A DNA stretch of 64,000 bases from Malacoraja senta (GCA_038087875.1 CM075987.1:23686001-23750000), one strand, 5' to 3'. Positions 4,143 to 62,245 are shown, numbered from the stretch's first letter. The notes: a model not told the origin generated them from the sequence alone. Program-made: numbers and translations.

Positions 4143-4170
4143 CTGAAGAAGGGTTTCGGCCCGAAACGTT
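4143..4170 (+). ncRNA. Minimal hammerhead ribozyme core (Penelope-associated)
   Basis: CUGAAGA-A-GGGU(UUCG)GCCC-GAAA-C-GUU. Confidence 0.7.
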
Positions 4171-5104
4171 GCCTATTTCCTTCGCTCCATAGATGCTGCT
4201 GCACCCGCTGAGTTTCTACAGCATTTTTTGTGTACCTGGGATTTTCCAGCATCTGCGGTTCCTTCTTAAAAACTCTGAGGCAGAGAATTGTGTTTGGCCC
4301 AGCTCCCTTTAGCCCCTTCCTATCCATGTACATATCCAAATATATTTCAAATGCTGTTGCAATACATGTCTCAACTACTTTCTCTGGCAGCTTGTTCCAT
4401 ATACCTACCACCCTCTGATTGAAAAAGTTGTCCCCTCGTGTTCCTATTAAATCTCTCCCCTCTCACCTTAAACCTATGTCCCCTGGTACTTGATTTCCCC
4501 TCCCTGGGTAAAAGATTCAGTGCATTCACCTTATCTATTCCACATGGTGTAGACGTCAATGGCTTTTTCTTTGTTGGATAACAGCTTTAGTTTATGCTCT
4601 GTGAATGGTTTCAGTTCTCATATTTCCTAATAGCCCTGTTGCTTTGTCATGTGCATTGAATGCCTTTGTGAGATCAACAACAAGCCTGTAAAATACTCTG
4701 AAGTTCCGGATATCATGAAATGCATGACCAACATCATTTATCTTTGATGCCTCTCTGACTGACACAATAACCTGGATTATTTTGGTACTTAGATAACGTA
4801 CAATCTGATGGTAAAAATCCAGTATTTATTCTGAAGAAGGTTTTCGGCCCAAAACGTTGCCTGTTTCCTTTGCTCCATAGATGCTGCCTCACCCGCTGAG
4901 ATTCTCAGCATTTTTGTCTACATTCATTTCTAGATTTTGTTTTCAATGTGTCCACCTTTCAGCAGGGAGCTACTTACGGTGCCCTCCATAATGTTTGGGG
5001 ACAAAGACCCATCATTTATTATTTGCCTCTGTACTCCACAATTTGAGATTTGTAATAGAAAACATCACATGAGGTTAAAGTGCACATTGTCAGATTTTAT
5101 CTAA

Positions 5105-5593
5105 AAGGCCTGTCTCACGGGTATGCGGTTACTGGCGGTGAAGCAGGAAGTCGGGACCGCTCGTGGACCGCCAGAGACCGCGCATGGCCCGCGGGGTCGG
5201 TCCCACGCACACCGCATGGTGCTCACAAAAAGTCGACAACGTTAAAAAATGTTGTCCTACCGCACAGCCGCCGCCAGTGCGGCACGAGCAGCGCCGCGAG
5301 CTGCACGAGCAGCGCCACAGCGCCGCGAGCCGAATTGACGTCATCGCTTAGCGCATTGCGTTGCGCGATGACGTCTTCACCCGACGCCGCGTGACATCCA
5401 TTCCAGTCGGCCCGTGGGACAGGCCGTGCGGTGACCACCCGGCATACGTGCGGCAACAGCTTCCGGTAAGGTTAAACTTACCACATGCTCGTGGGACATA
5501 TCCGCGCGGCGCTCCCGCAGTAGCCGCGCGGTCCCCGCTTCCGCGGACGCCGCGCTTCACCACCAGTAACTGCCTGCCGGTGGGACAGGGCCG
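5105..5593. mobile_element. PIF/Harbinger-like MITE (GC-rich) in the Tc1 left TIR
   Basis: Ends AAGGCCTGTCTCAC and GTGGGACAGGGCCG, flanked by TAA on both sides. Confidence 0.7.
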
Positions 5594-5705
5594 TAAGGGT
5601 ATTTCTATACATTACAGCAGAAATCACAGCAGTGTTTATACATAGTCCCCCCATTTCAAGGCACAATAATGTTTGGGACACAGCAATGTCATGTAAATGA
5701 AAGTA

Positions 5706-6737
5706 GTATTTTGTTGCATATCATTTGCATGCAATGACTGCTTGAAGTCTGTAATTCATGGACATCACCAGTTGCTGGGTGTCTTCTCTGGTGATGCTAT
5801 GCCAGGCCTGTATTGCAGCCATCTTTAGCTTATGCTTGTTTAGGGGGCTAGCCCTCTTCAGTTTTCTCTTCAGCATATAAAAGGCATGCTCATTTGGGTT
5901 CAGATCAGGTGATTGACTCGGCCACTCAAGAATTTACCATTTTTAAGCTTTGAAAAACTCCTTTGTTGCTTTAGCAGTATGTTTGGGATCATTGTCTTGC
6001 TGTAGAATTAACCGCCAGCCAATGAGTTTTGAGGCATTTGTTTGAACTTGAGCAGATAGGATGTGTCTATACATTTCAGAATTCAATATGCTACTACCAT
6101 CAGCAGTTGTATCATCAATGAAGATAAGTGAGCCAGTTCCTTCAGCAGCCATACTTGCCCAGGACATAACACCCCCATCACCGTGTTTCACAGATGAGGT
6201 GGTATGCTTTGGATCTTGGGCAGTTCCTTCTCTCCTCCATACTTTGCTCTTGCCATCACTGTGATATAAGTTAATCTTCGTCTCATCTGTCCACAAGACT
6301 TTTTCCAGAACTGTAGTTGCTCTTTTAAGTACCTCTTGGCAAACTAACCCGGCCATCCTATTTTTGCAGCAAACCAGTGGTTTGCATCTTGCAATGTAGC
6401 CTCTGTATTTCTGTTCATGAAGTCTTCTGCGGACAGTGGTCATTGACAAATCCACACCTGACTCCTAAAGGGTGTTTCTGATCTGTCGGACAGGTGTTTG
6501 GGGATTTTTCTTTATTGCAGTGAGAATTCTTTTGTCATCAGCTGTGGAGGTCTTCCTTGGCCAGCCAGTCCCTTTGCGATTAGTAAGCTCACCAGTGATC
6601 TCTTTCTTCTTACTGATGTTCCAAACAGTTGATTTTGGTAAGCCGCAGGTTTGGCTGATGTCTCGAACAGTTTTATTCTTGTTTCTCAGTCTCATAATGG
6701 CTTCTTTGACTTTCATTGGCTCAACTTTGGTCCTCAT
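5706..6737 (-). pseudogene. Tc1 transposase pseudogene
   Basis: HTH region (MRTKVEPMKVKEAI...GLPKSTVWNI), VLWTDETK, QQDNDPKH, and after in-frame stops WPSQSPDLNPNE. There are 34 positions between the second D and E. Several stops and frameshifts. Confidence 0.92.
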
Positions 6738-7052
6738 GTTGATAAACAGCAATAAAAATTTCCAAAGGTGATGGAAAGACTGGAGGAAAGACTCGGTGCT
6801 GAGAGCTCTCTTATACCTGCATTAAGGAGGTATTTAAACACACCTGAGCAATTACAAACACCTGTGAAGCCCAAACATTATGGTGCCCTAAAATGGGGGG
6901 GGGGGGGGGGGGGGGGAGACAGACAATGTATAAACACAGCTGTAATTTCTACATGGTGAAACCAAAATGTATAAAAATGGCCTTTAATAAAATCTGACCA
7001 TGTGCACTTTAACCGCGTGTGGTTGCAAATCTAACCACGTGATTGCAAATCT

Positions 7053-7768
7053 TTTTTATTTTTATTTTATTAGAAGTAAGTACAATTGTATACAATCATA
7101 TTTTCATAATACATTTTATGTACAGCTTCTTATTTTTAAATTTTTTATAATAAAGAAGAAAAAGAAAAATAAGTTAGATAATGAAAAATAGAAAAATGTG
7201 AGATATATAGTGTGTGGAAAAGAAAAATAGAGAGTGAAAGAAGAAAGTTAAAGAGTAGAAAATAGGAAAAAGAGAATAAAAGAAGTAAGGAGATCTTATT
7301 TATAATCTTGACCATCCCTCGCCCAGTCACGGATTAGCTTTTACAATTGTGTTGCACCATATGTTTCCAAACAGACGACAAATGGAGACCAACTCGTTGT
7401 GAATTGGTCAAATTTATCTATTAGGAGGAATCGCATTTCCTCAAGATGTGCGGTATCCAACATACTTGCAATCCACATTTTGAGCGTTGTTATTGGTGTA
7501 TTTTTCCAAAATTTCAATATTAATTTTTTTGCTATTATTAAACCATAATTAAAAAAGAATTTTTGAGATGGATTCAATTTATTCCCATCTTCCATTACCC
7601 CAAATATAATCAATTCATTATTAGGTTCCATTTTTATCTTAATTAATTTTGTGAATATTTCGAAAATATCACTCCAAAATCTATAAAGTTTTATACAGGA
7701 AACAAAAGAGTGTGCTATAGTTGCATCTTGGGTTAAACATTTATCGCAAGTGGGGGATATATTTGGGT
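7053..7768 (-). mobile_element. L1-type LINE 3' fragment (ORF2 C-terminal Cys/His region, 3' UTR, A-rich tail) inserted in the Tc1 right TIR
   Basis: ORF 7341-7787 reads YPNISPTCDKC...TIAHSFVSC...FW. A-rich tail at about 7052-7072. TSD ATTGCAAATCT at 7042-7052 and 7769-7779. Confidence 0.85.
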
Positions 7769-10700
7769 ATTGCAAATCTAACCGCAAATCTCAAATTGTG
7801 GAGTCCAGAGGCAAATAAATAAATGACGGGTCTTTGTCCCAAACATTATGGAGGGCATTGTTTTCCCAGGATTCTAATTGGGGTTTTTGGTCAAAGTTTT
7901 GAATACATCATGTAATGTTCAAAATGCTAAACGAATGTTCAACTCACAGCTAACCAAAACAAAGAATTTCGTAGTACCTAGGTACATATGACAATAAAGT
8001 ATAATTGAATATGATGCATAAAAATGTCTGGTGTGAATCGGAAATACATATAATGGAACAGGCAGAGAGAAATTAATGACTGGCTTATCTTATTTTATCT
8101 TTGAGGTCCACCTAGAAATTAATTGAAAATGGCTACTCTACCACAGGTAGTTGAGTTTAGTTTATTGTCACATGTGGCGGTGCTGGCTCAAAGGGCCGAA
8201 TGGCCTACTCCACCTATTGTCTACAGTACAGTTAGACATATCTTCAGTGTTTGTACATGCTCCGGTTTTCCTTCATTGAAAACATTCTGCCTTTTTCTTC
8301 TTTTAAGATGGTCACTAGATACCACTTGAACCAAACTATCTCAATAGACCTTCCTTAGCTCAGCGTCTAATGTCTATTGCTTAGGAAGGAACTGCAGATT
8401 CGGGTTTAAACTGTAGATAGACACAAAAAGCTGGAGTAACTCAGCGGGCCAGACAGCATCTCTGTAGAAAAGGAATAGGTGACGTTTTGGGAAGAGGGAC
8501 TCGACCCAAAATGTCACCCTATTCCTTTTCTCCAGAGATATTGTCTGACCCGCTGAGTTACTCCAGCATTTTATATCCAATATCTATTCTCTTAACTGAA
8601 ATGTCTTGAAGTGTTTTACCGTATTAATGGTGTGATGTAAATTCAAGATGTTGCATTGGAATGTTGTGATAAACAGTTTGCCTAATAGCTACCTCTCGAT
8701 ACCATCCACACTCTTGGGGGAATGATTATGTTTAAAAGGGAAGCATATTGGTCAACTGATACAGAAATTCTGTCTGTGTCTGTTACAGAAGATATTAAAG
8801 TGGTCTTTCGACAGGGCGGTTATAACTTTAAAAAAAGTTTGATAGGGTCTTGGATGCCTAACTTCACAAGGAATCCAGGATCATAGGGAGGGAGTAGAGA
8901 GGATTCAGTAAGGTGTTCCTAAAGGTGAAGGATTTTGTGAGGGAAGAAAATAGTGCGTTTCTCATTCGAATTAACAGTATTTTACTTGGGGAAATTTGGG
9001 GAGTACTATTTCTAGTCATTAATTTCTGAGTAACCAGAGGGCGGTGCATTAAAACAAGGAAGGAGAATTCTAAAGAACTTTTTGCAGGCTAAGAATAACT
9101 TTAAGTAGATATAAATACAAAAATGACCAACATTTAACATGTTCTGTGGAATGGGCAAAATATGAGTCTTTCACAGAAAGAGTGTATGTGTGATGGATTG
9201 AATAACCTGCTGCAAAGCAATGATGGTGCTTTTATACTTCACTATGGTTTATGGGATGTTTTTAGGTTAGGAACTATCTCCAACAGCCCCACACGGGATG
9301 GTGAGTGATAGAAGCAGGATCATGACAACTGCTGACGCTGGTTCGCACTGATGATCAACACAAAATGCTGGAGTAACTCAGTGGGACGGGCAGCATCAAT
9401 GGAGAGAAGGAATGGGTGAAGTTTCGGGTCGAAACCCTTCTTCAGTCAACCCGAAACGTCACACATTCCTTCTCTCCAGAGATGCTGCCTGTCAATAGAC
9501 AATAGGTGCAGGAGTAGGCCATTCGGCCCTTCGAGCCAGCACCCCCATTCAATGTGATCATGGCTGATCATCCCCAATCAGTACCCCGTTCCTGCCTTCT
9601 CCCCATATCCCCTGACTCCGCTATTTTTAAGAGCCCTATCTAGCTCTCTCTTGAAAGCATCCAGTGAACATGCCTCCACCGCTCTCTGAAGCAGAGAACT
9701 CCGCAAACTCACCACTCTCTGTGAGAAAAAGTGTTTCCTCGTCTCCATTCTAACTGTCCTACTGAGTTACTCCAGCACTTTGTGTCTATCTTCATGAGAG
9801 GTTGGATATCAAAGTGAAAGGTTGAGTTCCTCAAGGGTAATGGCATGAGGGACTGAATGGGCTTTATTTACCGCGCTACATGTTCTTTTACCCATTGAAA
9901 TGCTGAGTATTTGTTCTGTATACTCAGCCGCATACACATTGAGTGCAGATGGATGCAATCCCAAGTACTAGCTGCAATAAAAAATTGAGCCTCCGTGCTC
10001 CGCAGTTCAAAACTGTGAACTTTTATTGCTCATCCTTCTTTTGCCCACGAGCAGCCTTTTTGAACTGTGCCAAATTATTCTGGGTTAGATCATAAGACAT
10101 TGGAGCAGAATTAGTCCATTCAACCCATCGAGTCTGCTCTGCCATTCGATCATGGCTGAACTATTTTTCCCTCTCAACCCCATTCTCCTGTCTTCCCCCC
10201 CCTCCACAACCTTTGACACCTTTACTAATCAAGAACCGATCAATCTCCATTTAAAAAATACCTACCACCTCCTGTGGAAATGAATTGCACAGATCTGTCA
10301 CCCTCGGGCCAAAGAAATTCCTCCTTGTCTCCATTCTAAGACGTACAACACAGATTCTTAGGCGGATTGCATCTTCTCTTCCGTGTTTTTCCAATCCTTT
10401 TTCTCTTTAGACATTTTTTGTCTTTTGCCCTCTCTTCCATAACCTCTATCCTGTATTTCACACCCCTGATGCCTGTGCCACCTCAGATTAATGAACATCA
10501 GAGACGAGAATCTGGGGCTGAGATGCACCTTGTTGGATAGGGTGCTCTAATTCATTGAAGACCTTTGAACAATTTTACTCGGACATTATCTTGTACTCTA
10601 TGATATACCCTGTATCTGTACACTGTAGACGGCTTGATTGTAATCATGTATTGTCTTTTTGTTAACTGGAGAGCACGCAACAAAAAAGATTTTCACTGTA

Positions 10701-11837: not shown

Positions 11838-11863
11838 TGTGTAACGTGTCGTGGTGCCTACAG

Positions 11864-32277
<20,414 letters not shown>

Positions 32278-36269: not shown

Positions 36270-37121
36270 TCCTGCTTTTACATTTCGTCTGAAGCCAAGT
36301 TAATTTATGAAGAATGATGAGTGACTTTTGCATAATTTATAAAAGAGACCAGGATGGAAAGAAAAATATATATCACCTGGTTCTTCACTCGGGTAACAAC
36401 CAAAGGCGCAGACGGAATGTGTATGAAGGAACTGCAGATGCTGGTTTGCACCGAAGATAGATGCAAAATGCTGGAGTAACTCAGGCGGGACAGGCAGCAT
36501 CTGTGTACAGAAGGAATGGGTGACGTTTTGGGTGGAGACCCTTCTTCACACTGGCACAGTTTGCTTTGTAATGATGTTGGGCAGTTTATATCTCCGATTC
36601 AGGGACAGTTTCTTCCCAGCTGTTATCCAGCAACTGAACCATCCTATCACCAACTAGAGAGCAGTCCTGAGCTACTATCTACAGCATTGGAGACCCTCAG
36701 ACTATCTGTAATCGGACATTACTGGACTTTATCTTGCATTAAACATTATTCATGTTATTCCCCTTATGTATCCGTACACTGTGGACGGCTTAATTGTAAT
36801 TATGTACAGTCTCTCTGCTGACTGGTTAGCACACAACAAAAACTTCACACTATCTCGGTACACGTGACAATAAACCGAGGTACAGTGAAAAGCCTTTTGT
36901 TGCGTGCTAACCAGTCAGCGGAAAGACAATACATGATTACAATCGATCATTTACAGTGTATAGATACATGATAAGGGAATAACGTTTAGTGCGAGGTAAA
37001 GCCAGCAAGGTCCGATCAAGGATATTGTGTTTAAGAAGGAACTGCAGATGCTGGAAAATTGAAGGTAGACAAAAATGCTGGAGAAACTCAGCGGGTGAGG
37101 CAGCATCTATGGAGCGAAGGA

Positions 37122-39422: not shown

Positions 39423-39451
39423 AACGTTTCGGGGTCGAAACCCTTCTTCAG
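39423..39451 (-). ncRNA. Minimal hammerhead ribozyme core, antisense copy
   Basis: Reverse complement reads CUGAAGA-A-GGGU(UUCG)ACCCC-GAAA-C-GUU, with one extra C. Confidence 0.6.
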
Positions 39452-40240
39452 ATCTGAAAAGGGAAGTTGGAACGCCACTGGTCGAGCAAATTGGCCCGTG
39501 ATCCTCTGCCGTCACCAGATTTGGCCTTCAGTAACCACAGCCATCTTCCTTAATGTTGGCTGTGTTCCAACTCATCGACAGTGGGTCCCGGCACCATCAC
39601 TTTTATTGAGACGGCTGGATGTTCATGAATTCTTCTGTAGACTTTAGAGATACAGCGCGGAAACAGTGCCCTTCGGCCCAACGAGTCCGCGCCGACCAGC
39701 GATCGCTGTCCTACACACTAGGGGACAATTTCCAATTTTACCGAAGCAAATTGACCTACAAACCTGCACATCTTTGGAGTGTGGGAGGAAACTGGAGCAC
39801 CCGGACTGAACCTACACATTCACAGGGATAACGTGCAAACTCCATAGGGACAGCACCCGTAGTCAGGATCGAACCCAGGTCTCCGGCGCTGTAAGCAGCA
39901 ACTCTACCACTGCGCCACCGTGCCCGCCCCACTCTTCCTATAACTTGCTTAATCATCCATTGCTATTCATGATTTAAAATGTGCAGAGTTTTGATCAGAT
40001 CCATTGGTGGTGAAATGACTAGCCATTATGTATAGCACAGCATAAATGGTGTATGTTTGCTGTTGACATACATGTGTGAGCGTGTACACACACTTATGGA
40101 TGTATACACATCCATGTCTTGGAGGTAGACGCAAAATGCCGGAGTAACTCAGCGGGGCAGGCTGCATCTCTGGAGAGAAGGAATGGGTGACGTTTCGGGT
40201 CGAGACCCTTTCTTCAGACTGACCTGAAACGGCCCAGTCT

Positions 40241-40547
40241 CGTTGAAGCTCCAAGGCATGGAGTGTAGGAAAGAACTGCAGATGCTAGCTTCAATCAAAG
40301 GTAGACACAAAACGCTGGAGTAACTCAGTGGGACAGGCAGCATCTCTGGAGAGAAGGAATGGCCTGTTTCAATGCTGCATCGCAAAAACTAGATGCCCCT
40401 GTTCGGCATCTAGCATTGAAACAGGCCATTCCTTCTCTCCAGAGATGCTGCCTGTCCCACTGAGTTACTCCAGCGTTTTGTGTCTACCTTTGATTGAAGC
40501 CAGCATCTGCAGTTCTTTCCTACACTCCATGCCTTGGAGCTTCAACG
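40241..40547. repeat. Near-perfect inverted repeat (136-bp arms)
   Basis: 40241-40376 is the reverse complement of 40412-40547, with one mismatch seen. Confidence 0.93.
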
Positions 40548-43659: not shown

Positions 43660-46600
43660 GTATGACCCTATTTGAATCTGGGCGAAATGGACTGAATGGC
43701 CTGTTTCTAAACTGTAACCTGCAACAGTCTGCCCAAGTTCCCTGCTCTCTGTCCCCCTCTCATTTGAGTCTCGTTTTATAATCCCCTGTAGGGATTAGAG
43801 AAAGGACGTAAGGACGTAAATTGGTTTTAATAGCGGAGCAGAAGGCTGATTAACTTCTGACCTTCAACTCCGTTACTGAGAGAATATCGGCCCATATGTC
43901 TGCTTTATCTTTAAGCTTTAAAGCTGATTTTCTGGGAGTTTTACAGCGTTCAAGTTAAGAGATCTCAATCACCAAGTCTACAGTCGGCGCTGGTACATAG
44001 TTATATGTATATAATATATTTAAGAGAGACCTGTAGATGCTGGAAAAATCGAAGGAGGACAAAAATGCTGGAGAAACTCAGCAGGTGAGGCAGCATCTAT
44101 GGAGAGAAGGAATAAGTGGCTTTTCGGGTCGAGACCTCTCCTCTGGTCCCCGCAATCACGTACAGAACGAAGCAACAAGCCAATTGCAGGGTTGGGTGGT
44201 CAACGGTAGCGTTGCTGCCTTACAGCACTTTCAGCGCCGGAGACCCGGGTTCGATCCCGACTACGGGTGCTGTCCGTACGGAGTTTGTACGTTCTCCCCG
44301 TGACCGGCGTGGGTTTTCTCCGAGATCTTCAGTTTCCTCCCACACTCCAAATACGTACAGGTTTGTAGGTTAATTGGCTTGGTGAACATTTAAATTGTCC
44401 CCAGTGTGTGTAGGATAGTGTTAATGTGCGGGATCGCTGGTCGGCCTGGACTCTGGGGACAAGTTACAATTTTGACCGAAGCCAATTAACCTACAAACCT
44501 GCACGTCATTGGAGTGTGGGAGGAAACTGGAGCGCCCAGAGAAACTCCACGTGGTAGTGGGAGAACGTACAAACTCCGTACAGACGGCACCCTTAGTCAG
44601 GATCGAACACGGGTCTCTGGCGCTATAAGGAAGCAACTCAACCACTGCGCCACCATGACGGCCAACCCTACAATTGGCTTGTTGATGAATGACTACTATA
44701 TTTTGCTGGTTACTGTTTGTAAGCCTCGTTGTCACCTTCCCCTCAGCCAACAGTGAACCATTCTACATGTCCTTGATCATCGTCTGCTTTGATCTGTCGT
44801 TTTCACACCTTGCCCTTCCAGATCTCTGGTCTCCTTATCCCCTGACTCTCAGTCTCTAGAAGGTTTGACCCGAAACTTCACCCTTTCCTTCTCTCCAGAG
44901 ATGCTGCCTGTCCCGCTGAGTTACTCCAGCATTTTGCGTCTGCCTTCGTCATATTTCTGGTGGGGTTAGACTTTGAGTGGGAGGATCATGCGGGGCGAGT
45001 CTGTCCCCATTTTACCCGGGGTTCGAACTTTGTTTCACAAAATCAGTAAGCGCGTTAAAAGTATCAGTGGAAAAAGAGGAACGGAAGTTCCTGGGATATG
45101 TGGTCATAGGCTTGAGAGTGGGATGGTGGCTGCTTGTAATGAGAGGATCTTGTCGTGCTTGGATCACATGCTTGCTTGCCGCAGTGGCTCTGTCACTCCT
45201 CCTGGGCTGTGAATGGCCTTTTTGTCTCGGGTCGGGCAGCTGTGGGAGTTTGTTGACATTGCCGCCTGCAGTTAGATTAGCAGTGAAAGAACAGTCGCGC
45301 ACACAGAGGGTCGAAGACCGGTTCCAACTCGCGTTGATTTGGTATAGGGCTTGAGATTGTGGGAATGATTGAAAAGCTGGTGATGTTTCCGCTCTGTGGA
45401 AATCCAACTCCTCCAGTCTGCCTTAAACCCCCCCCCCCCCCCCCCCCCCCCAAACCCCTGTACTCAGAGCAACATCTGATTAAGGGTTTGGTGAACCGGA
45501 ACAGGACAATGTGTGTAGTTTAGTTTAGAGATACAGCGCAGAAACACGCCCTCTGGCGCACCGAGTCCGCGCCGGCCACCGAGCCCCGTACACCGGCACT
45601 GTGCTACATTCACACACACTCGGGATCATTTTACAATTTCTACCAAGCCAATTAGCCTACAAACCTGTACGTCTTTGGAGTGTGGGAGGAAACCGAAGAT
45701 CTCGGAGAAAACCCACGCGGTCACGGGGAGAAGGTACAAACTCCCCATAGCCAGCACCCGCAGTCGGGACGAAACCAGGGTTCCTGGCACTGCAAGCGCT
45801 GTAAGGCAACAATGCTACCACTGTGCCGGTGTGCCACCCAAGTGTGTAGGGTTGCTGGTTGGCATGGACCCGGTGGGCCGATGGGCCTGTTTCTGCATTG
45901 TATCTCTAAAGCAAAGTAAAGACTCCCATCCACAACATTTATCACCAAGAATTCTTTCCCTGCCTCCTCGTTGAGCTCTATTCTGGACCTGAGGCCTTAA
46001 ATCAATGAAGGATTTTCTAGATTTATGATCACTTGTTGAGATTTTATATCTTCACTCCTGGAATCTGCTGGTGTTTTGCTGATGACATTGCAGGCTTAGC
46101 TACACATCACAGGTGCTGGTTTACACTGAAGATAGATAGACACGTCACGCTGCAAGTACCTCAGCGGGACAGGCAGCATTTCTGGAGGAGAGGAATAGCT
46201 GACGTTTCGGTTCGAGACCCTCCTTCAGAACGTCACCAATTCCTTTTCCTCAGAGATGGCGTGTGAGGCAGGGACACGTTGGCCGGTGTGGGTGCAGGTT
46301 GGGCATGTTCCCACGCTCTGTCGCTCTGTGGCCGATTCGGGAAGCCCAAGCCGCTGGGAACGTTCTCCCGTTCCGACGTCGGAGTTCCATCATCCGGCGA
46401 GCGGGCCTGAACATCGGGCCGTTCGTAGCGGCGACAGGGAGGGGTTCGGGAGCCCCCCGACCACGGGTGAACAACAGCGGACAACAGAGGAGGATGACTG
46501 AACTTTGGTGCCTTCCCTCACAGTGGGAAACTTTGATACCGCTGTGCGGGGATGTCTGTGTTAAAGACTATTGTGTTCTGTGTTCATTTTTATTCGTATG

Positions 46601-48407
46601 GCTGTATGGTGACCCCAAATTTCACTGTACCAATTGGTACATGTGACAATAAATGTCTCTTGTCTTGTCTTACGAATATGACTCTATGCTGCCTGACCCA
46701 CCGAGTTTCTCCAGCATTATGCGTCTATCTCCTCAGTCTATCTGCTGGCTTGCAATAGAGGTTAGACACAAAATGCTGGAGTAACTCAGCGGGGCAGGCA
46801 CATCTCAGACCCTGAGGTGTGTGGACGCACCGACTGTGAACTGTGCCTCCAGAAGAAGTTGAAATCGTGAGTGTAAAATGTCCACAGAACCACATCCTGC
46901 ACCTGACCGAGGTCTGTGGGTGCGTAGGGAGGAACTGCAGACGCTGGTTTAAACCGAAGATAGTCACAAAAAGCTGGAGTAACTCAGCGGGACAGGCAGC
47001 ATCTCTGGAGAGAAGGAATGGGTGACGCCTCGGGTCGAGACCCTTCATTCTGTGGCTGGTGACGGCACAGACTCCATTCATGACCACCTACTAATTACCA
47101 CCCTTCAATTTCTACAGAACAGTTCCTTATTTTAATATAACCAGCAGCTTTCTTCTGCGATACAATCTCAGCGGCCGCCGTTTGCCCTGTTCTGTGTCAA
47201 TGGCATGATTGTGCTAATTAAGATGGAGGAGATAAAAAGCCCTTTGTCAGGGTTTGCATTGCCTTTATTCCTGTTAATCTGTGTTATATTACGAGCAATT
47301 TTAATAATTGATCAGATGAACTTTGAAAGCATTTTGTCCCGCATATCTGAAATATTACTCTTTTAGTCTTGCTAGTACATGTTGATGTAAAATACATCAA
47401 AGGTTAATCTATCAAAATGGGTTACGTGAGGGGAAAATAGACACAAAATGCAGGAGTAACTCAGCGGGCCAAGCCCGAAACGTCACCCATTCCTTCTCTC
47501 CAGAGATGCTGCCTGTCCCACTGAGTTACTCCAGCATTTTGTGTCTATCTTCGGTTATGGTCAGGTCGGGGAGAGTCCCCCCACCACGGGTACCGTGTAA
47601 TCTCGTGCTACCTGCTCCATGGTCGGATAGTTGCCGACTAAACCGTCTCCCCCACCTGGTTTGCCAGGTGAGGAGAGGGGCTGTGGACCCCCAGCAGGAC
47701 CAAAAACAAGACCTGTCAAAGGGCGGATGAGCTTCTGCCGAGCCGACGGCCATCCACACTTCAGTAGAAGTTGCGATCACTGTCGTACACAGCATTGTAA
47801 GGAGTGAAAAAAAACCCCATGAAATGTAATTCTTCCCTCTCCTTGCTTCTCAAAAGAGAAGTTGAGAATTAATTTGGTTTAAACTAGCATCGCAGTTCCT
47901 CCCTACACAATACGTGAGGGGAAAATATACAGTTGAAACAAAGATAGTACAGATACTGGTTATTACACAAATGAATGAATGAATAAGTTTATTGGCGAAG
48001 TATTCACATACAAGGAATTTGCCTTGGTGCTCCGCCCGCAAGTGGCAACATGACATACAGTGACGGTTAGGAATAACACATAAAACATTAAACATTAATA
48101 ATAAAACATTATCGATTAAACATGTGAATTAAATAAAGACATCTTTGTAGGGTTTTCACAGACGACGACAAACGAACAAATACAAAACAGCAAGGAGCAG
48201 TACAGCGTGGCGGCCATCGTTGGCGCCAGCAGCAGGGAGAGACACAGAGTGTCTGGAGTAGTTCAGTAGGTCAGGCAACATCTCTGGAAAACATGAATAA
48301 GCGATGTCAGACCTCTGAAGAAGGGTCACGATCCAAAACACCTATTCATGTTCTCCAGAGATGCTGCCTGACCTGCTGAGTTACTTCAGCACTTCGTGTG
48401 TCTGTTG

Positions 48408-48958: not shown

Positions 48959-49421
48959 TAAGTACATGGTGGTTCAGCACTGCTCACTGGTTTTGGTAGG
49001 ATGACAAACCAGAGAGCAAGTGCTGAACGACTACCTACCTCGTTGATGACTTTGCTGGCTTTACCTTGCACTGAATGTTATTCCCTTATTATGTATCTAT
49101 ACACTGCAAATGGCTCGATTGTAATCGTGTGTTGTCTTTCTGCTGACTGGTTAGCACGCAACAAAAGCTTTTCACTGTACCTCGGTGCACGTGACAATGA
49201 ACAAAACTGAACTGATGAACTAAACGTGTGCTATGGTGGATGAATGAACATCTGGTACTCCCCCATGCCTCATTCACACTTCAGCCTCAGCACCTCACTC
49301 CCGGCACCCAAATCCCTGCTATCGCATCAGGTTCTCGCCTTCGTGAACTCCGTCCACAGGTAGTTAGTTAGTTAGTTAGTTAGTTTAGTTTGTTGTCAGG
49401 GTGTGTAGGAAGGAACTGCAG

Positions 49422-49640
49422 ATGCTGGTTTACACCGAAGATAGACACAAATTGCTGGAGGAACTCAGCGGGACAGGCAGCGTCTCTGGAGAGAAGGAAT
49501 GGGTGACCTTTCAGGTCGAGACCCTTCTTCAGACCTTCTCAAGGAAAGTCTCGACCCCGAAACGTCACCCATTCCGTCTCTCCGGAGATGCTGCCTGTCC
49601 CGCCGAGTTACTCCAGCATTTTGTGTCCATCTTCGTCTAT
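49422..49640. mobile_element. Penelope-derived inverted-repeat element (example; similar ones near 8395-8580, 9330-9790, 20340-20530, 27815-28170, 34200-34375, 59281-59570)
   Basis: gtaggaaggaactgcagatgctgg...gggtgacctttcaggtcgagaccc is followed by its reverse complement ...cccgaaacgtcacccattcc...cagcattttgtgtc. Confidence 0.7.
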
Positions 49641-53457: not shown

Positions 53458-54126
53458 TTTTTTATTAATTTAAAAAAAAAAATTATACAAATACTTTTAT
53501 TCAGAAAACAAATACCAACATACAAAAGGAACTGCCTTTGTGGCAGTTTACAAAACAGCAGTCGTCAATTTAAAAATAACGTCATCTTCATCAGTTATAC
53601 ACTCGGCCTCCCGCGGCGATCAGCGTTCAAGGAAGGCCTCCAGAGTCCCCCGTGGACACCGTGTGTGTTCCCTCTCCGGGGACACGCGGGCACGGACGTG
53701 GGCCCGGAAAAGGGGCAGGCAGTCGACCCCCGGTGCGGCCATCGACTGCCCGCTGCCTGGATCCGCGAATGGCCATCTTGGCCGGGCCCAGGAGCAGACC
53801 GACAGGGAGATCCCCCCCCCCTCCCTCCCGATCCGACCCCCTCTGTACCGGGCGCCCAAATATCAGGAGCGTGGGGCTAAAATGTAGCCAAAACCTGAGG
53901 AGCAGCCCCTTCAGATACTCGAACAGGGGCTGCAACCTTTCACACTGCATGTAGACATGGAACACGGTCTCCTCGCCGCAGAAGTGACAGGCGGCGGACG
54001 AGTCCGTGAACCGGCTCAAGTACCTGTTACAGGCCACGCGTTTGTGCAACACTCTCCACCCCAGGTCCCCGATGTAAAAGGGGTGGACTCCCTTATAGAG
54101 AGATTTCCACTGGGGGCCGCTCCCGA
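53458..54126 (-). mobile_element. Tx1-clade LINE 3' fragment inserted in a V-SINE
   Basis: PQWKSLYKG...GDLGWRVLH...CHFCGEETVFHVYMQCERLQPLF is a Tx1-like ORF2 C-terminal zinc region. A-rich tail; TSD CTGACAAT at 53450-53457 and 54127-54134. Confidence 0.85.
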
Positions 54127-54680
54127 CTGACAATGGGAGCGATCTGTACGGAGTTTGTACGTTCTCCTAGTGACCGCGTGGGTTTTCTCCGGGTGCTCCG
54201 GTTTACTCCCACACGCCAAAGACGTACAAGTTTGTAGACTAATTGGCCTGGTAAAATTGTAAATTGTCCCCCCGCGTGTGTAGGTGTGTGTGTTAGTGTG
54301 CGGGGATCGCTGGTTGGAGCGAACTCATTGGGCCGAAGGGCCTGTTTCCGCGCAGTATCGTAAAAGATCTAAACTAAACTGGTATTGGGGAGAGAGCTTC
54401 ATAGTTCAGTTGTAATAGTGCGTGTAAGATGAATGTGTATGTTTGTACTGTGGTCATGTATAATTTAACGGTGTAATTACATACTAGGTTTTTTGTCGAT
54501 TGGTCGTGCGAGCCCAATGAATGTGCTTGGTGAGTGTTGAACTTGGTGCTGTCAAACCTGTGCGTCAGTGTTTAATTGGTATATGCATCAGGGCTGGAGC
54601 AACAAAATCCTTATTTGCTGCCGTTTTTTCAGGCACAAAGCGACGCAACAAATTAAGAATGACACACTAATTATCAGTTA

Positions 54681-55024: not shown

Positions 55025-55124
55025 TAAGACGAGGTTACCAGACCATGATAGTGCAAGCCAAAGTGTGTTGTGCAATCTTATACGATGTCCATAGCAGTTC
55101 TGGGTGTCCTGGGTGGGCTTGGTC

Positions 55125-58037: not shown

Positions 58038-59476
58038 TTAGATAGAGCTCTTTCAAGAGAGAGTAAGATAGTGCTCTATCAAGGGATACGGGGAGAAGGC
58101 AGGAACGGGGTGCTGATTGTGGATGATCAGCCATGATCCCAGTGAATGGCAGTGCTGGCTCGAAGGGCCGAATGGCCAGCTCCTGCACCTATTGTCCATT
58201 GTGACCGTGTGGGTTTTCTCCGGGTGCTCCAGTTTCCTTCCACACTCCTAAGACGTGTGGGTTTGTTGGCTTCTGTAAATTGTAAATTGTCCCTGGTGGG
58301 TGTCGGATAGTGTTGGTGTGTGGAGTCATCACTGTCGGCCCGGACTCGGAGGACTGAAGGCCCTGTTTCTGCGCTGTATCTCTAAAGTATCTAAGCTAAA
58401 GTAACTAAATGACTCTGTGACCTCTGGTCTGCAATCCCCTCTGGTGTCTGCTGTTGTCTCCATTATAGATCTTTTTTCCCAGCTGAGCAGGAGTGCAGAA
58501 AGTCAAGGCTAGCATTTCTGTAACATCTTTCAAGATCTAAATGCTCCAAAGTAATCCACAGAAAACTGTGTGCCTACTTTGAACTGTAGTCACTCCAACT
58601 AGGTAGGGATTTTAGTTTAGTTTTGAGATACAGAGCGGACGGAAACAGGTCAACCGGCCCAACGAGTCCGTGCCGACCAGCGATCCCCAAACACTAACAC
58701 GATCCTTCACACTAGGGACAGGCAGGCCTTGATTCTGAACAAGGCCAGGATGGAGTGGATGTTGAGAGGATGCTTCCACTAGTGGGAGAGTCTAGGAAAA
58801 GAGGGCACAGCCTCAGAATAAAAGGACAAACCTTTAGAAAGGAGGTGAGGAGGATTTTTTTCAGTCAGAGGGTGGCGAGTCTGTGGAATCCATTGCCACA
58901 GGTGGCTGTGGAGGCCAAGTCAATGGATATTTTTAAGGCAGAGATTATCAGGTTCTCGATTAGTACGTAATGAGGAGAAGGCAGGAGAATGGGGTTGAGA
59001 GGGAAAGATAGATCAGTCATGATTGAATGGTGGAGTAGACTTAATGGGCCAAATGGCGTAATTCTGCTCCCAGTCCCAGTGCAGGCTGGGGTGAGGCACG
59101 GCTGTGTCATCCAACCTTACAACCTCTCTTGCTGCAATGTCGCACTTCTCCAAGAGGCTCCGAGCGGAATGGAGCTAATCTATAGGATGAATGACAAACT
59201 GCGCAACCCCCAGTGCAGAACTAAGGGTGTTGCACGACAGGCATCAAGCTGCAGAACACACATGATATTTGCAGAGTAGTTGTGTAGGAAGGAACTGCAC
59301 ATGTTGGTTTATACCAAGGATAGAAAGATGGAGTAACTCAGCGGGTCAGGCAGCATCTCTGGAATGGCCTGTTTCCTTTATCATCGTTAATTTTTTGCAT
59401 ATCTTTCATTCATTTGTTCTCTATCTCTCCACATCACCGTCTATATCTCTCGTTTCCCTTTCCCCTGACTCTCAGT

Positions 59477-59504
59477 CTGAAGAAGGGTCTCGACCCGAAA
59501 CGTC
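59477..59504 (+). ncRNA. Minimal hammerhead ribozyme core (Penelope-associated)
   Basis: CUGAAGA-A-GGGU(CUCG)ACCC-GAAA-C-GUC. Confidence 0.72.
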
Positions 59505-59734
59505 ACCTATTCTGTATCTCCAGAGATGCTGTCTGGCCCGCTGAGTTACTCCAGCATTTTGTGTCTGTCTTTGATATTTGCAGAGGTTGAGCTCCCTCTG
59601 TCTCCCCCTTGATGCAAACAAGATAATGGACTAAACATGAACAGAGTCAAATTCCTCCACTATCCCGCTTCTGCTGCTCCGCTTTGATGAGAAGACACGG
59701 GGAAGATGGACATTGATACAGAAAGAACAGCTTT

Positions 59735-60175: not shown

Positions 60176-60649
60176 TCAGGGGTCAGGGGTTATGGGGAGA
60201 AGGCAGGGGAATGGGGTTAAGAGGGAAAGATCGATCACCCATGGTTGAATGTCGGAGTAGACTTGATGGGCCGAATGGCCAAATTCTGCTCCTATAACTT
60301 ATGAACATGAATCAGTGCCAACTGGAATGAATTCCTGGGCAGGCCCCTCTTTGGTAAATTGCAGTGTTTGTAATAATTTATCCTTCATCTCGCTGTCAGA
60401 ATTATGTTGTGACAGGAGTGCAACAGCTGTTGAATTTTGGAATTAGCCCAGATTCCCTCGTTTTACTGACCTAACCCCCTCTCCCCTTCCCCCCTCCCCC
60501 TCCCCAATCACGTAGTGACAAGCGATCTAAATCATAGATCCACCCACCCCTACTGCCTCTGTTGGGATTAGCTGGGGATCACACCAGGTTCAAGAATAGC
60601 TTCATCTCACGACACCACACGAACCTCAACTATGAAACATCATGAAACT

Positions 60650-61033
60650 GATTGAAACATACAAGATTGTTAAGGGTTTGGACACGCTGGAGGCAGGAAA
60701 CATGTTCCCGATGTTGGGAGAGTCCAGAACCAGGGGCCACACAGTTTAAGAATAAGGAGTAAGCCATTTAGAACGGAGATGAGGAAACACTTTTTCTCGC
60801 AGAGAGTGGTGAGTCGGTGGAATTCTCTGCCTCAGAGGGCGGTGGAGGCAGGTTCTCTGGATGCTTTCAAGAGAGAGCTGGATAGGGCTCTTAAAAATAG
60901 CGGAGTCAGGGGATATGGGGAGAAGGCAGGAACGGGGTACTGATTGGGGATGATCAGCCATGATCACATTGAATGGCGGTGCTGGCTCGAAGGGCCGAAT
61001 GGCCTACTCCTGCACCTATTGTCTATTGTCTAT
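60650..61033 (+). mobile_element. CR1 LINE 3' fragment
   Basis: Same sequence family as 21428-21808. Confidence 0.9.
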
Positions 61034-61311
61034 GAACTTCTATGAACTGTCTGTGCTTGCACTGGCTATCGGATTTTGTTTTTGCACGAGTATTGCGGTT
61101 AATAACATTGCTATTTTTTGGTTTAGTATATATTGCAGGTGTTTATTGCGTTTACAGGCCTGTTGAGATGTTACTATTCCATTGTCGATCTATATGACAG
61201 TTAAATGCTCTTGACCTTCCTGCATTGGTAATGACATTGAATTGCAGCCTGACCCGCTGGGTTACTCCACCATTTTATGTCTCCAGCAATTGCAGTTCCT
61301 TGCTTTAACGG

Positions 61312-61612
61312 GGCAGCATAGTGGCACAGTGGTAGAGTTGCTGCCTTACAGCGCCAGAGGCCCAGGTCGATCCTAACTACGGGTGCGATCTGTACGGAGT
61401 TTGTACGCTCTCCCTGCGTGGGTTTTCTCCGGGATCTCCGGTTTCTTCCCACACTCCAAAGACGTACAGGTTTGTAGGTTAATTGGCTTGGTATAATTAT
61501 AAATTGTCCCTAGTATGTGGATAATAGTGTTAGTGTGCAGGGATCGCTGGTCGGCGTGGACTCAGTGGGCCGAAGGGCCTGTTTCCGCGCTGTTTCACTA
61601 AACTAAACTTAA
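61312..61612 (+). mobile_element. V-SINE (HE1-like); further copies near 15290, 18960, 25485, 31262, 39643, 44190, 45517, 51810, 52230, 53378, 56017, 57665
   Basis: Full-length head, V domain and tail. Confidence 0.85.
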
Positions 61613-62217
61613 ACCAAAAGGGAAGTGAAACTGAATTTCCAACTGTAGACGAAGGAGGGTCAACTCACAGAGGTACAAAAAAACCCAACTGAACATGGCA
61701 GAACTCAGCAGGTAAGTCAGCATCTGTGGAGACAAAAGCGAGAAGGGTCAAGATCCTACATCAGGATTTATGCAGGGTCTTGACCCGACTTGCACCTTCT
61801 GCCTTCACAGATGCTATTTGACCTGTTGTATTCTTCCAAAGTTCTGTTCTGTCATTTTAGATTCCAGCATCTGCAGTCTCTGTTGCCTTCAAACTGATGG
61901 AGGTGATGGGTGAAGTAGACACTGCAGTTAGTTGCCAAGGAACGATTGAGGATCTTTGTGGAAGCAGCAATGGCAGAGCTTTGTATTTTAAATTTAAATT
62001 AATGTCTATAATTGATATGAGCAGAATTAGGCCACTCGACCCCTCAAGCCCACGCCGCCATTCAATCATGGCGGATCTATCTTTCCCTCTCAACCCCATT
62101 CTCCTGCCTTCTCAGATTTAAAATACCCAATGACTTGGCCTCCGCAGCCATCTGTGGCAATGAATTCCACAGATTCGCCACAACTCTGGCTAAAGAAATT
62201 CCTAAAGAAAATCCAGT

Positions 62218-62245
62218 CTGAAGAAGGGTCTCGACCCGAAACGTC
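62218..62245 (+). ncRNA. Minimal hammerhead ribozyme core (Penelope-associated)
   Basis: Core identical to 59477-59504. Confidence 0.72.

Follow-up and report, generated by a model that had tools for sequence, protein, structure and literature searches.

Dispersed hammerhead motifs in a Malacoraja senta genomic window very probably belong to the 3′ module of an abundant Penelope-like element

A repeat scattered through a 64,000 nt stretch of Malacoraja senta DNA (the window) is very probably the non-coding module at the 3′ end of a highly abundant Penelope-like element (PLE), and its first 28 nt form a minimal type-I hammerhead. The link to a PLE open reading frame (ORF), the hallmarks of insertion and the match to published motif features are matters of observation. 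The linker motif of the encoded protein suggests that the element is of Neptune type. Nearly all copies in the window are dead fragments, and the motif is of the kind already known from metazoan PLEs; this is therefore an ordinary case and not a new route by which host messages are cut.

The motif, CTGAAGA-A-GGGT(C/T)TCG(A/G)CCC-GAAA-CGT(C/T), is intact at three sites in the window, all on the + strand (Table 1). The descriptor CTGANGA-N13-GAAAC matched four times in 64 kb, where 0.09 matches are expected, and at least four were obtained in none of 100 shuffles; the 28-mer at up to three mismatches matched nine times against an expectation of 0.00. These searches recovered the three intact cores listed in the first-pass annotation. 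Its near-intact cores on the − strand (near 9418, 39423 and 40189) are correctly placed, each with one defect, and all six of its decayed cores (near 4831, 15378, 27868, 28100, 34273 and 48314) are present. A search with a repeat profile built from nine copies found 53 copies in the window, 28 on the + and 25 on the − strand, which occupy 5,181 nt (8.1%). The core is at least partly kept in 35 of these and missing from 18, and only three of the 35 are intact. Copies that had escaped notice include those at 36522, 38088, 44118, 46201, 47024 and 49505 (−) and at 44854 and 49538 (+). Head-to-head inverted pairs, which take in about one-third of the window copies, had also been overlooked.

Table 1. 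Repeat copies and host exons in the window (positions counted from its first nucleotide).
Position	Strand	Feature	Core and remarks
2384-2615	−	Two same-strand fragments	2384-2508, partial core; 2558-2615, without core
4138-4289	+	Subtype B copy, 36-nt optional tail	Intact, 4143-4170; helix II U-G; triplet GUU
4830-4924	+	Decayed subtype B core	4831-4858; G10.3>U, G12>A
8378-8580		Head-to-head pair	Both cores partial; junction within helix II
9300-9493		Head-to-head pair, 9300-9449 (−), 9446-9493 (+)	9418-9445 (−), near-intact; G16.2>U breaks ACGU palindrome
12260-12344	−	5′-truncated copy	Break inside core; helix II onward left
14920-15141	+	ORF with exon (context)	Bromodomain match, 61.9 bits; sets host gene strand
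15373-15525	+	Decayed core	15378-15405; G12>A by CpG decay; directly 3′ of bromodomain exon
20323-20533		Head-to-head pair, foldback	Partial cores; source of weak MIR839 match
25996-26149		Inverted tail-only arms	Without core
27816-28004		Head-to-head pair, 27816-27868 (−), 27862-28004 (+)	Both decayed; + arm C3>U, A-U replacing G10.1-C11.1
28095-28194	+	Decayed core	28102-28126
31012-31158		Head-to-head pair	+ arm core 31073-31089 cut by deletion; duplicate fragment 31673-31724 (+)
31956-32282	+	ORF with exon (context)	BET extra-terminal domain match, 100.4 bits
34193-34426		Head-to-head pair, 34193-34262 (−, without core), 34268-34426 (+)	34273-34300; A9>U
36407-36555	−	Decayed core	36522-36549; C3>G, G12>A
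37972-38119	−	Decayed core	38088-38114
39355-39453	−	Copy, near-intact core	39423-39451; 1-nt insertion, helix II 3′ strand
40109-40223	−	Copy, near-intact core	40189-40217; extra A inserted after A9, before helix II
40261-40527		Inverted tail-only arms	Profile positions 38-140 both sides; 61 nt apart; without core
44009-44143	−	Decayed core	44118-44145
44851-44953	+	Decayed core	44854-44879
46076-46258		Head-to-head pair, 46076-46234 (−), 46229-46258 (+)	46201-46228; A9>G, C11.3>A
46686-46806		Tail-to-tail pair, the window's only one	Without core
46912-47047	−	Decayed core	47024-47052
47433-47567		Head-to-head pair	+ arm: core's 3′ half only
48236-48403		Head-to-head pair, 48236-48307 (−), 48314-48403 (+)	48315-48339, decayed
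49386-49636		Head-to-head pair, long foldback, 49386-49538 (−), 49536-49636 (+)	49505-49532; C11.1>U, C15.2>G
59281-59363	−	Inverted fragment, tail only	109 nt upstream of intact 59477 copy
59472-59624	+	Subtype A copy	Intact, 59477-59504; triplet GUC
61701-61882		Head-to-head pair	Both decayed
62213-62366	+	Subtype A copy	Intact, 62218-62245

The motif has the layout of a hammerhead core (CUGAAGA ... GAAA ... GUH) with a 4-bp helix II, a tetraloop and a bulged A ahead of helix II, and it retains every invariant hammerhead nucleotide. It lacks a helix III of its own, which the palindromic ACGU could form, as a 4-bp intermolecular helix, only with a second copy. All 41 aligned rows have A as the bulged nucleotide, and 97.5% of helix II cells are paired; among the 40 distinct rows, G10.1-C11.1 is G-C in 34 and G-U in five, and C15.2-G16.2 is retained in 30. 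For helix I, two of the 2–3 bp proposed in the first-pass annotation are borne out (pairs form in 33 and 37 of 40 rows), but a third forms in only six. The same annotation had recognized the features of a minimal, dimer-type PLE hammerhead, and the motif indeed matches those published (PMC4209133). Its U-A/U-G swap (helix II) and CUCG/UUCG loop alternation are likewise real and mark two subtypes, A (CTCG loop, A, GTC) and B (TTCG loop, G, GTT). Their three differences within the 28-nt core all fall at permissive sites (a change of one loop base, the U-A/U-G swap, and C or U at H17) and spare the 11 invariant core positions.

That the repeat derives from a Penelope element, as had been suspected, is supported by its position. 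In 29 of 30 genomic loci retrieved with the element's protein, it begins 115–185 nt past an RT/GIY-YIG protein match on the same strand. In five of five long copies, a stop-to-stop ORF of 1159–1237 aa ends exactly 115 nt before the repeat, and the motif stands 67 nt before the short 3′ end. The ORF encodes RVT_1 and then GIY-YIG, with a C-X4-C-X2-C linker visible in translation; Pfam scores for the long ORF are under the curated cut-offs (RVT_1 26.4, GIY-YIG 19.2), and GIY-YIG in other copies scores above its cut-off. A pyrimidine-rich stretch upstream of the 4138-4289 copy matches the 3′UTR of the young PLE. Across the 1.94-Gb assembly we counted 18,728 exact copies of the 28-mer and 44,606 descriptor-intact motifs, and reversed control patterns gave no matches.

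The mode of insertion is also that of a PLE. The repeat exists in forms of about 100 nt and about 140–155 nt, and its 3′ ends are bimodal; five of ten subtype B copies end at the short end, and the other five extend 36–38 nt further into an optional tail. Pairs among 126 matches are oriented head-to-head in 22 cases and tail-to-tail in three (binomial p = 1.6e-4). Two long copies (L050 and L053) are abutted by inverted truncated copies, and a third (L051) is flanked by a 12-nt direct repeat, a target duplication of the kind that is a PLE hallmark. In the window, CTAAAGAAA is present immediately upstream and immediately downstream of the 62213-62366 copy and may likewise be a target duplication. 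Listed hallmarks of PLEs include the optional tail and adjacent inverted 5′-truncated copies (PMC8557442, PMC11167929). No second hammerhead-bearing repeat was found upstream in the five long copies of this family, and hence the classic arrangement of two hammerheads per transcript is not seen for them.

In transcripts of source elements, the motif would cleave after GUC or GUU as a dimer and would aid PLE RNA processing. We judge the chances of this to be close to even, if anything slightly lower, and expect no more than weak activity. Lunse, Weinberg and Breaker (RNA Biol) are said to have described dimer cleavage by minimal PLE hammerheads. The window copies would be passive insertion products, comprising 5′-truncated tails and foldbacks from adjacent inverted copies, and they probably exert no designed effect on host genes.

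Several computational results bear on activity. The dimer hammerhead fold, with helices II and III, is predicted at −12.7 to −13.3 kcal/mol, versus −23.7 to −28.8 kcal/mol for the predicted dimer minimum, which places the active fold about 11–15.5 kcal/mol above it. In the monomer, the lowest predicted fold joins AGAAGGGU to the post-cleavage ACCUAUUCU, which competes with helices I and II. Reads of RNA from two related species covered the module at a depth of 2,000–5,600 but showed no pile-up of molecule starts or ends at the cleavage site after GUC/GUU. Covariation is weak: four cells changed on both sides, the observed score was reached in 5 of 500 shuffles, and variation in helix II is of wobble type only. 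Dispersed copies decay neutrally, with the core changing as fast as the flanks; in flank-anchored subtype A copies, private substitutions affect 32 of 411 catalytic and 164 of 2657 flank cells (p = 0.23). Shared variants are rarer in the core (4 of 411 invariant-core cells versus 195 of 2657 flank cells in 42 such copies), but cells are not independent, and by position the difference (1 of 10 versus 25 of 65) is not significant (p = 0.15).

We regard as a tentative but serious alternative that many subtype A copies, instead of arising by random truncation of the long PLE, represent a distinct short element, non-autonomous and about 105 or 145 nt long, which starts at the hammerhead. It would be copied by the PLE machinery, like a SINE or a monomeric retrozyme, and would be compatible with a PLE origin of the module. 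Of 49 distinct core-bearing copies, 19 have at most 2 nt in common with other copies upstream of C3 and a further 11 only 4–8 nt, and several such stretches look like unique flank. The sample is small, however, rarer 3′UTR variants would resemble unique flank, and about eight of the sharp boundaries mark the meeting point with an inverted arm. Contigs of the source species and RNA reads show a class of loose ends that starts 2 nt before C3 (L051 position 6917), with an agreement of only 0.32–0.33, but no promoter or defined RNA-level 5′ end was found. The possible CTAAAGAAA duplication bounds the 62213 copy a few nucleotides upstream of its core, and retrozymes are reported to be non-autonomous PLE derivatives with monomeric copies (preprint 10.64898/2026.07.22.740005). 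Against this, the window holds no tandem hammerhead-bearing arrays, which define retrozymes, and the first 100 genomic positions listed for the exact 28-mer include only two close same-strand pairs.

We give modest weight to the reading that the motif is not a working ribozyme, its 28 nt being kept for recognition by the PLE reverse transcriptase or endonuclease or for a competing hairpin, with the hammerhead likeness a relic or passenger. The entire 100-nt tail is conserved about as well as the core, and the predicted minimum pairs the core with a downstream CCUAUUCC stretch. Rfam hammerhead models gave no match in the window at gathering score or E <= 10, nor in a 121-nt stretch around 59477 at E <= 10. 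Hammerhead mutants of an Anolis PLE inserted unaffected in vitro, and no RNA-seq ends were reported at its cleavage site (PMC11167929); Naiad PLEs flourish although they have no hammerheads, and the suggestion is made there that hammerheads do no more than parasitize PLEs (PMC8557442). All the invariant nucleotides are retained, however, and beyond these the motif has three features for which simple pairing has no need, namely a bulged A, the G10.1-C11.1 pair and palindromic positions 15.2-16.2; nor is the descriptor expected by chance. A hammerhead is also favoured by the sparing of the 11 invariant positions by subtype differences and by the presence, in this genome, of another PLE family, unrelated to the first, whose hammerhead-like core is different, having a real helix III and a helix II of other sequence.

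Cutting of host pre-mRNA is unsupported. The first-pass annotation had proposed that many sense copies within BRD3 and VAV2 introns could pair, in cis or in trans, and cut the pre-mRNA. That intact sense copies in host introns do so as double hammerheads, with an effect on expression, we consider very improbable. BET-family exons are confirmed, but a VAV2-type domain was found neither in 426 window ORFs of at least 60 aa nor in 112 + ORFs from 50 kb on (77 of 35–59 aa and 35 of at least 60 aa, the latter rescanned at a looser threshold), and ORF domain scans confirmed no gene around 59–62 kb. None of the three intact cores lies between the confirmed BET exons, where the + cores (15378, 27869, 28102, 31073 and 31679) are all dead. 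The intact same-strand copies at 59477 and 62218 are 2.7 kb apart, the palindrome permits pairing between molecules, dimeric PLE hammerheads show some cleavage in vitro (PMC4209133), and Xenopus introns are reported to be depleted of retrozymes (preprint 10.64898/2026.07.22.740005). Weighing against cutting are the scarcity of intact cores, the equal private substitution, the RNA reads, the 2-bp helix I and the unfavourable active fold. Strands are also balanced in the genome (22,497 versus 22,109; assembly strand, not gene strand) as in the window, and in the foldbacks the antisense arm would pair with the motif.

To read the inverted pairs as microRNA precursors or as DNA transposons of foldback or MITE type, with an incidental hammerhead likeness, is scarcely credible: some form long near-perfect hairpins (49386-49636, 20323-20533) with weak microRNA-model matches (MIR839, 47.6 bits, E = 2.4e-6), but every such match is far under its gathering score (200 for MIR839), the junction varies by pair from profile position 3 to 73, arm lengths are unequal, single arms outnumber pairs, the arms consist of tail sequence from an RT/GIY-YIG element, and adjacent inverted 5′-truncated copies are already described for PLEs (PMC8557442).

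Among known systems, animal non-LTR retrozymes resemble the PLE module described here in being short non-coding units with a type-I hammerhead, kin to PLE terminal regions and dispersed as monomeric copies (PMC7229834; preprint 10.64898/2026.07.22.740005); they are defined by head-to-tail tandem arrays yielding circular RNAs, whereas the window has no tandem pair with a core in both units. The Poseidon element PAc of Anolis carolinensis likewise has an optional tail, explained by two internal reverse-transcription start sites, and a hammerhead without RNA-seq ends at the cleavage site, but that hammerhead overlaps the ORF start (PMC11167929), whereas ours lies 3′ of the ORF. Endonuclease-bearing (EN+) Neptune-type PLEs (Arkhipova, 2006, summarized in PMC8557442) share the single ORF with RT followed by GIY-YIG at its C terminus, the Cys-rich C-X4-C-X2-C linker ahead of the endonuclease, heavy 5′ truncation with adjacent inverted copies, an optional 30–40 bp tail and a hammerhead near the 3′ end. 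Unlike them, the present element has a long stop-to-stop ORF (about 1224 aa), and its five long young copies are not in partial tandem and have no upstream hammerhead-bearing pseudo-LTR.

There is a close likeness to the minimal hammerheads of metazoan PLEs (Cervera and De la Pena, 2014; PMC4209133). Here, a tetraloop closes a helix II of 4 bp, versus 7–8 bp in Schistosoma families, and helix I is 2 bp, as for Drosophila virilis, versus 4–5 bp in Schistosoma families and in the published metazoan consensus. The 44,606 descriptor-intact motifs outnumber the approximately 4,000 quoted for coelacanth and 9,000 for Xenopus, although those counts were obtained with different descriptors. Both share the type-I layout with its CUGANGA / GAAA / UH core, the unpaired nucleotide between A9 and G10.1, the G10.1-C11.1 pair, the absence of an own helix III with a palindromic 15.2-16.2 (ACGU) that requires a dimer, the location in a non-coding terminal region of a PLE, and the thousands of scattered single copies with opposite-strand pairs 100–700 bp apart.

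The pattern CTGANGA-N13-GAAAC matches the window four times, against 0.09 expected (four or more were reached in 0 of 100 shuffles), and the 28-mer at 59477-59504 has nine matches with up to three mismatches, against 0 expected. The hammerhead motif and the intact, near-intact and decayed cores reported in the first-pass annotation are present as described, and the motif is well above chance; the decayed cores listed there are all real, and about a dozen more were overlooked, as was the head-to-head arrangement of many copies. A profile of the repeat, built from nine copies, gives 53 hits in the window (5,181 nt; 28 on the + strand and 25 on the - strand), 35 of which retain part of the core, whereas 18 represent the downstream part alone. 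In the 1.94-Gb assembly the exact 28-mer occurs 18,728 times and CTGANGANGGGTYTCGRCCCGAAACGTH, a descriptor fixing all catalytic positions, matches 44,606 places; reversed control patterns gave 0 matches across the same assembly.

Positions of hammerhead cores and of other features in the window
Feature	Position	Strand	Remark
Intact core	4143-4170	+	exact hammerhead core
Intact core	59477-59504	+	exact hammerhead core
Intact core	62218-62245	+	exact hammerhead core
Near-intact core	9418-9445	-	G16.2>U
Near-intact core	39423-39451	-	helix II with 1-nt insertion
Near-intact core	40189-40217	-	additional A ahead of helix II
Decayed cores	near 4831, 15378, 27868, 28100, 34273, 48314		
Tail hairpin	59526-59557		AUGCUG ... 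CAGCAU, loop about 20 nt
Foldbacks	20397-20510, 26050-26111, 40347-40439, 46184-46251		weak matches to microRNA-precursor and other hairpin models
Upstream repeat family	about 3912-4100	+	
Upstream repeat family	9450-9640	-	
Upstream repeat family	62020-62150	+	
ORFs	5946-6464, 6468-6821	-	Tc1/mariner-type HTH matches: HTH_Tnp_Tc3_2 27.4 bits, HTH_24 24.9 bits
RVT_1 fragment	23662-24180	+	88.5 bits
zf-RVT fragment	53630-54166	-	26.4 bits
Run of 200 N	36070-36269		assembly gap or withheld sequence; 138 nt upstream of repeat copy 36407-36555
Bromodomain-match ORF	14920-15141	+	domain match
BET-match ORF	31956-32282	+	domain match

The repeat is a module of a Penelope-like element (PLE); the window copies arose by insertion of this element and are decaying neutrally. 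A GIY-YIG domain scan of the genome gave 14,024 first-look candidates, and in two of seven stretches taken around such candidates the repeat lies directly downstream of the match. When a 401-aa frame from one of these stretches served as protein query, 86,717 first-look candidates were obtained, and in 29 of the 30 loci examined the repeat starts 115-185 nt past the protein match and shares its strand. Five longer stretches contain stop-to-stop frames of 1159-1237 aa, each followed by the repeat after exactly 115 nt (5 of 5). A frame of 1224 aa carries RVT_1 at residues 708-877 and then GIY-YIG at 1128-1161, neither of which reaches its curated cut-off. Elsewhere GIY-YIG does exceed it, at 27.9 bits in another stretch (L019), and the scan of the genome gave 29.9-32.3 bits for this domain. 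The translation of L019 reads C-X4-C-X2-C immediately before the GIY-YIG motif, between the RT and EN domains, and sections of PMC8557442 describe a Cys-rich CX2-5CxxC linker at this place as a mark of Neptune- and Nematis-type PLEs. The element is probably an EN+ PLE of the Neptune type. Since long copies are 98.4-99.9% identical across 1.0-2.9 kb, the family is young. The long copy in the stretch L051 is surrounded by a 12-nt direct repeat (3179-3190 and 7014-7025). Its frame includes, at 4076-4303, 78-nt tandem units whose number varies among otherwise 99% identical elements.

Hallmarks of PLE insertion, as treated in parts of PMC8557442 and PMC11167929, are heavy 5′ truncation, an inverted 5′-truncated copy adjoining the 5′ end, partial tandems and an optional tail of 30-40 bp. 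Three of these four (truncation, tail and inverted copies) are clearly present for the repeat, and they join the RT/GIY-YIG frame in bearing out the Penelope derivation proposed in the first-pass annotation. Profile coverage declines steadily toward the 5′ side. Repeat 3′ ends, taken as profile ends, are bimodal in both subtypes of the motif, A and B, and of ten subtype B copies that were aligned, five finish at the short site and the other five extend 36-38 nt. Neighbouring pairs among 126 hits are head-to-head in 22 cases versus tail-to-tail in three (binomial p = 1.6e-4), with seven on the same strand, four of which belong to one minisatellite; the long copies in the stretches L050 and L053 each have an inverted truncated copy directly next to them. 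Partial tandems (pseudo-LTRs) were absent from the five long copies, and one occurs in the stretch L055. As the literature on the family would have it, reverse transcription may begin at one or the other of two internal positions close to the 3′ end, giving short and tailed forms, may often stop early, leaving truncated tails, and may often be accompanied by an adjacent inverted copy, producing foldbacks. A MITE or foldback transposon as the source of the inverted pairs is rejected on account of their varying junctions and unequal arms.

Several foldbacks in the window resemble hairpin models weakly, the best match being MIR839 (47.6 bits, where the gathering score is 200), and the weak microRNA and lncRNA matches to Rfam in the window are foldbacks or chance. 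Automatic annotation could mistake such PLE-tail foldbacks for microRNA genes; PLE tails and foldbacks account for about 8% of the window and for many microRNA-like hairpins. A minisatellite in another stretch (L033 380-790; period about 100 nt, about 4.5 units) is made of sequence from the tail's post-cleavage part, without the hammerhead core.

The 5′ half of the motif reads C3-U4-G5-A6-A7-G8-A9, followed by one unpaired A and by helix II, GGGU/ACCC (or GCCC), with a CUCG or UUCG loop; the 3′ half comprises G12-A13-A14-A15.1, C15.2-G16.2, U16.1 and position 17, which is C or U. Three window copies match the invariant core exactly (C3 U4 G5 A6 N7 G8 A9 ... G12 A13 A14 ... A15.1-U16.1, H17). 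Among 41 aligned copies, 40 of them distinct, the four loop-closed pairs of helix II are formed in 97.5% of cells. The 10.1-11.1 pair is G-C in 34 and G-U in five of the 40 distinct rows, and column 14, the unpaired position that separates A9 from G10.1, holds A in all 41. The palindromic ACGU, a reduced helix III, retains its A-U pair in 39 of 40 rows and its C-G pair in 30, and an intermolecular 4-bp helix III between two copies can be written and evaluated. Helix I consists of two pairs only, U2.1-A/G1.1 (33 of 40) and G2.2-C1.2 (37 of 40), short of the 4-6 bp expected of a minimal PLE hammerhead; the stem I of 2-3 bp described earlier comes down to 2 bp, as a third pair forms in just six of 40 distinct rows. 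Beyond the search descriptor, passages of PMC4209133 point to four features: consensus families with compensatory changes, an unpaired nucleotide between A9 and G10.1, a G10.1-C11.1 pair and a palindromic 15.2-16.2 pair. The motif has the last three, and compensatory changes are not clearly present.

Subtype A combines CUCG, U-A and GUC, and subtype B, to which the young long PLE copies belong, combines UUCG, U-G and GUU. These three differences within 28 nt all fall at sites that hammerheads tolerate, and divergence between the subtypes is not significantly lower in the core than in the stretch after it (3 of 28 positions versus about 11 of the next 67, p = 0.75). All copies share a conserved tail hairpin whose subtype differences are confined to the loop, and which may be an element recognised for reverse transcription.

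The neutral decay of the dispersed copies is apparent from their substitutions. The sample, small and non-random, combined the window with bystander copies in loci holding the PLE protein, and yielded 131 unique hits, 42 of them flank-anchored copies of subtype A. In these 42, private substitutions affect 32 of 411 cells (7.8%) at ten non-CpG invariant core positions and 164 of 2657 (6.2%) in the flank (p = 0.23); CpG sites decay fastest everywhere in the copies. Because private substitutions are equally frequent in core and flank, the dispersed copies are not under selection, a result that says nothing on source elements. The core of the dispersed copies is no more conserved than its surroundings, an outcome that the first-pass annotation had named as counting against its reading. 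An initial count from local alignments had suggested a more conserved core; it was set aside, decayed cores having been trimmed at the profile edge, and the flank-anchored recount replaces it. Variants common to at least four copies probably arose in source lineages. They occupy 4 of 411 cells at invariant positions and 195 of 2657 in the flank, cells that are not independent, and by position they are found at 1 of 10 invariant sites versus 25 of 65 in the flank (p = 0.15). Their scarcity at invariant core positions is a hint rather than proof.

Other analyses bear on ribozyme function more directly. Rfam returned no hammerhead family at gathering score, nor at E <= 10 on the window or on 59440-59560. 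For covariation, 40 of the 41 rows were chosen as core matches within four mismatches and the 41st, the intact copy at 4143, was added by hand; in these recent paralogues the signal is weak: four cells are changed on both sides, the covariation score is equalled by 5 of 500 shuffles, and helix II varies by wobble alone. The dimer with helices II and III scores -12.7 to -13.3 kcal/mol, whereas the minimum predicted for the dimer lies at -23.7 to -28.8 kcal/mol. In the predicted minimum of the monomer, AGAAGGGU of the core pairs with the post-cleavage ACCUAUUCU(U) (59477-59516 and its equivalents in other copies) in an 8-bp helix that replaces helices I and II. Both strands of this helix are identical in subtypes A and B, and in these folding models the competing helix might represent a switch or chance.

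Raw RNA reads of two related species were compared with L051:6500-7100 at 85% likeness, from poly(A) or oligo-dT libraries in which decayed copies are dominant. The part containing hammerhead and tail reached depths of 2,050-5,625 in two bulk libraries, with about equal orientations, and the PLE ORF part reached 46-670, a coverage that fits passenger transcription of dispersed copies. Among these mostly decayed copies, no position was listed as one where many molecules start or stop, the predicted cleavage site (L051 6946/6947) included, which argues weakly against cleavage. That two motifs in source transcripts would pair through ACGU and cleave after GUC or GUU is in our judgement uncertain, with chances somewhat below even.

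A second reading concerns the 5′ boundary. Many subtype A copies (62213, 36555, 15373, 4830) have just 0-8 nt, (AT)CAGT, in common upstream of C3, so that what they share begins practically at the ribozyme motif. Both the source-species contigs and the RNA reads of relatives show an accumulation of loose ends 2 nt ahead of C3 (L051 6917), with near-random sequence upstream. The TCAGTCT at this boundary also fits YYANWYY, the initiator-element pattern. Such 'hammerhead-first' units, about 105 or 145 nt long, might form a separate short element, independently transcribed or processed and mobilised by the PLE, which would be a monomeric cousin of retrozymes. Were this so, the genome's at least 44,606 descriptor-intact cores would supply enough same-strand pairs within transcription units for occasional dimer cleavage of pre-mRNAs. 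The head-to-tail arrays of core-bearing units that characterise retrozymes were not found: neither of the window's two same-strand pairs has two cores, and two close same-strand pairs occur among the first 100 exact 28-mer places listed from the genome. Back-joints indicative of circular RNA had zero reads in every joint row listed, in poly(A)-type libraries of related species. We consider this reading as a whole, occasional pre-mRNA cleavage included, unlikely. Pairs of perfect cores on the same strand lie in the stretches L056 (100-177, -) and L055 (170-385, -). The upstream unit ends 4 nt past the cleavage site in one pair and 7 nt past it in the other, and the following unit begins anew 6 nt ahead of the core in one case and within the ORF end in the other. 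An origin of the boundary or the tandem junctions at the cleavage site is rejected on account of these stops and of the position of the boundary upstream of the core.

The first-pass annotation had also placed sense copies in introns of BRD3 and VAV2, where they could pair and cut the host pre-mRNA. Domain matches show a BET-family gene on the + strand of the window. VAV2-type domains (CH, RhoGEF, PH, C1, SH2, SH3) were found neither in 426 ORFs of at least 60 aa, a search that short exons could escape, nor in 112 + strand ORFs from 50 kb on (77 of 35-59 aa, and 35 of at least 60 aa at a looser threshold). Between the Bromodomain and BET exons all + strand cores are dead; of the three intact ones, one lies 10.8 kb upstream of the former exon and two lie 27-30 kb downstream of the latter. 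We hold cutting of the host pre-mRNA by intronic copies to be very improbable.

The repeat has several neighbours of other kinds. Directly upstream of three hammerhead copies lies another repeat family, containing ...CCATTCAAT..ATCATGGC.GATC... and ...GGCCTCC.C.GC.... The two ORFs with HTH matches probably represent a decayed DNA transposon, judging from their domains, and the RVT_1 and zf-RVT fragments are from other retroelements, probably LINEs, that have no relation to the PLE tail. Tandem arrays with a period of about 5.3-7.5 kb are formed by a second PLE family, whose frame is 759 aa long (ORFs at 38-2317 and 5376-7655 of the stretch L013). About 310 nt upstream of its ORF (L013 5020-5070; G000:C5485) is a different hammerhead-like core, CTGACGA-A-GCTA...TAGC-GAAA, followed by a 5-bp helix III (CTGG...CCAG) and GTC. 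As written, this core could reach its fold as a monomer, and a search of Rfam gave no matching model.

Portions of PMC4209133 and of a review already describe hammerheads of the minimal, dimer type from the terminal regions of PLEs and their spread on a massive scale through genomes of fish, coelacanth, amphibians and reptiles, and short hammerhead repeats derived from PLEs appear in part of a preprint (10.64898/2026.07.22.740005). Our literature searches on Penelope-like hammerheads, sharks included, turned up no account of this family; the supplementary vertebrate alignments of PMC4209133 could show a closer match. The skate is another genome with tens of thousands of minimal hammerhead motifs spread by a PLE, and there is little new in kind. 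The young and huge family, with its 2-bp helix I, lends itself as a natural system to testing if motifs this small can cleave in the first place, and to asking what determines the abrupt 5′ boundary shortly before the motif. It differs from non-LTR retrozymes, whose core-bearing units form head-to-tail arrays that the window copies lack, and from the tandemly arrayed second PLE family, its own five long copies being free of partial tandems. It resembles the Anolis element, for which sections of PMC11167929 likewise report no RNA ends at the cleavage site, as in the reads of the two related species. The PLE hammerhead of Drosophila virilis, as portrayed in passages of PMC4209133, also has a 2-bp helix I like that of the motif described here, and motifs of this kind are reported there to show low activity in vitro even as dimers.
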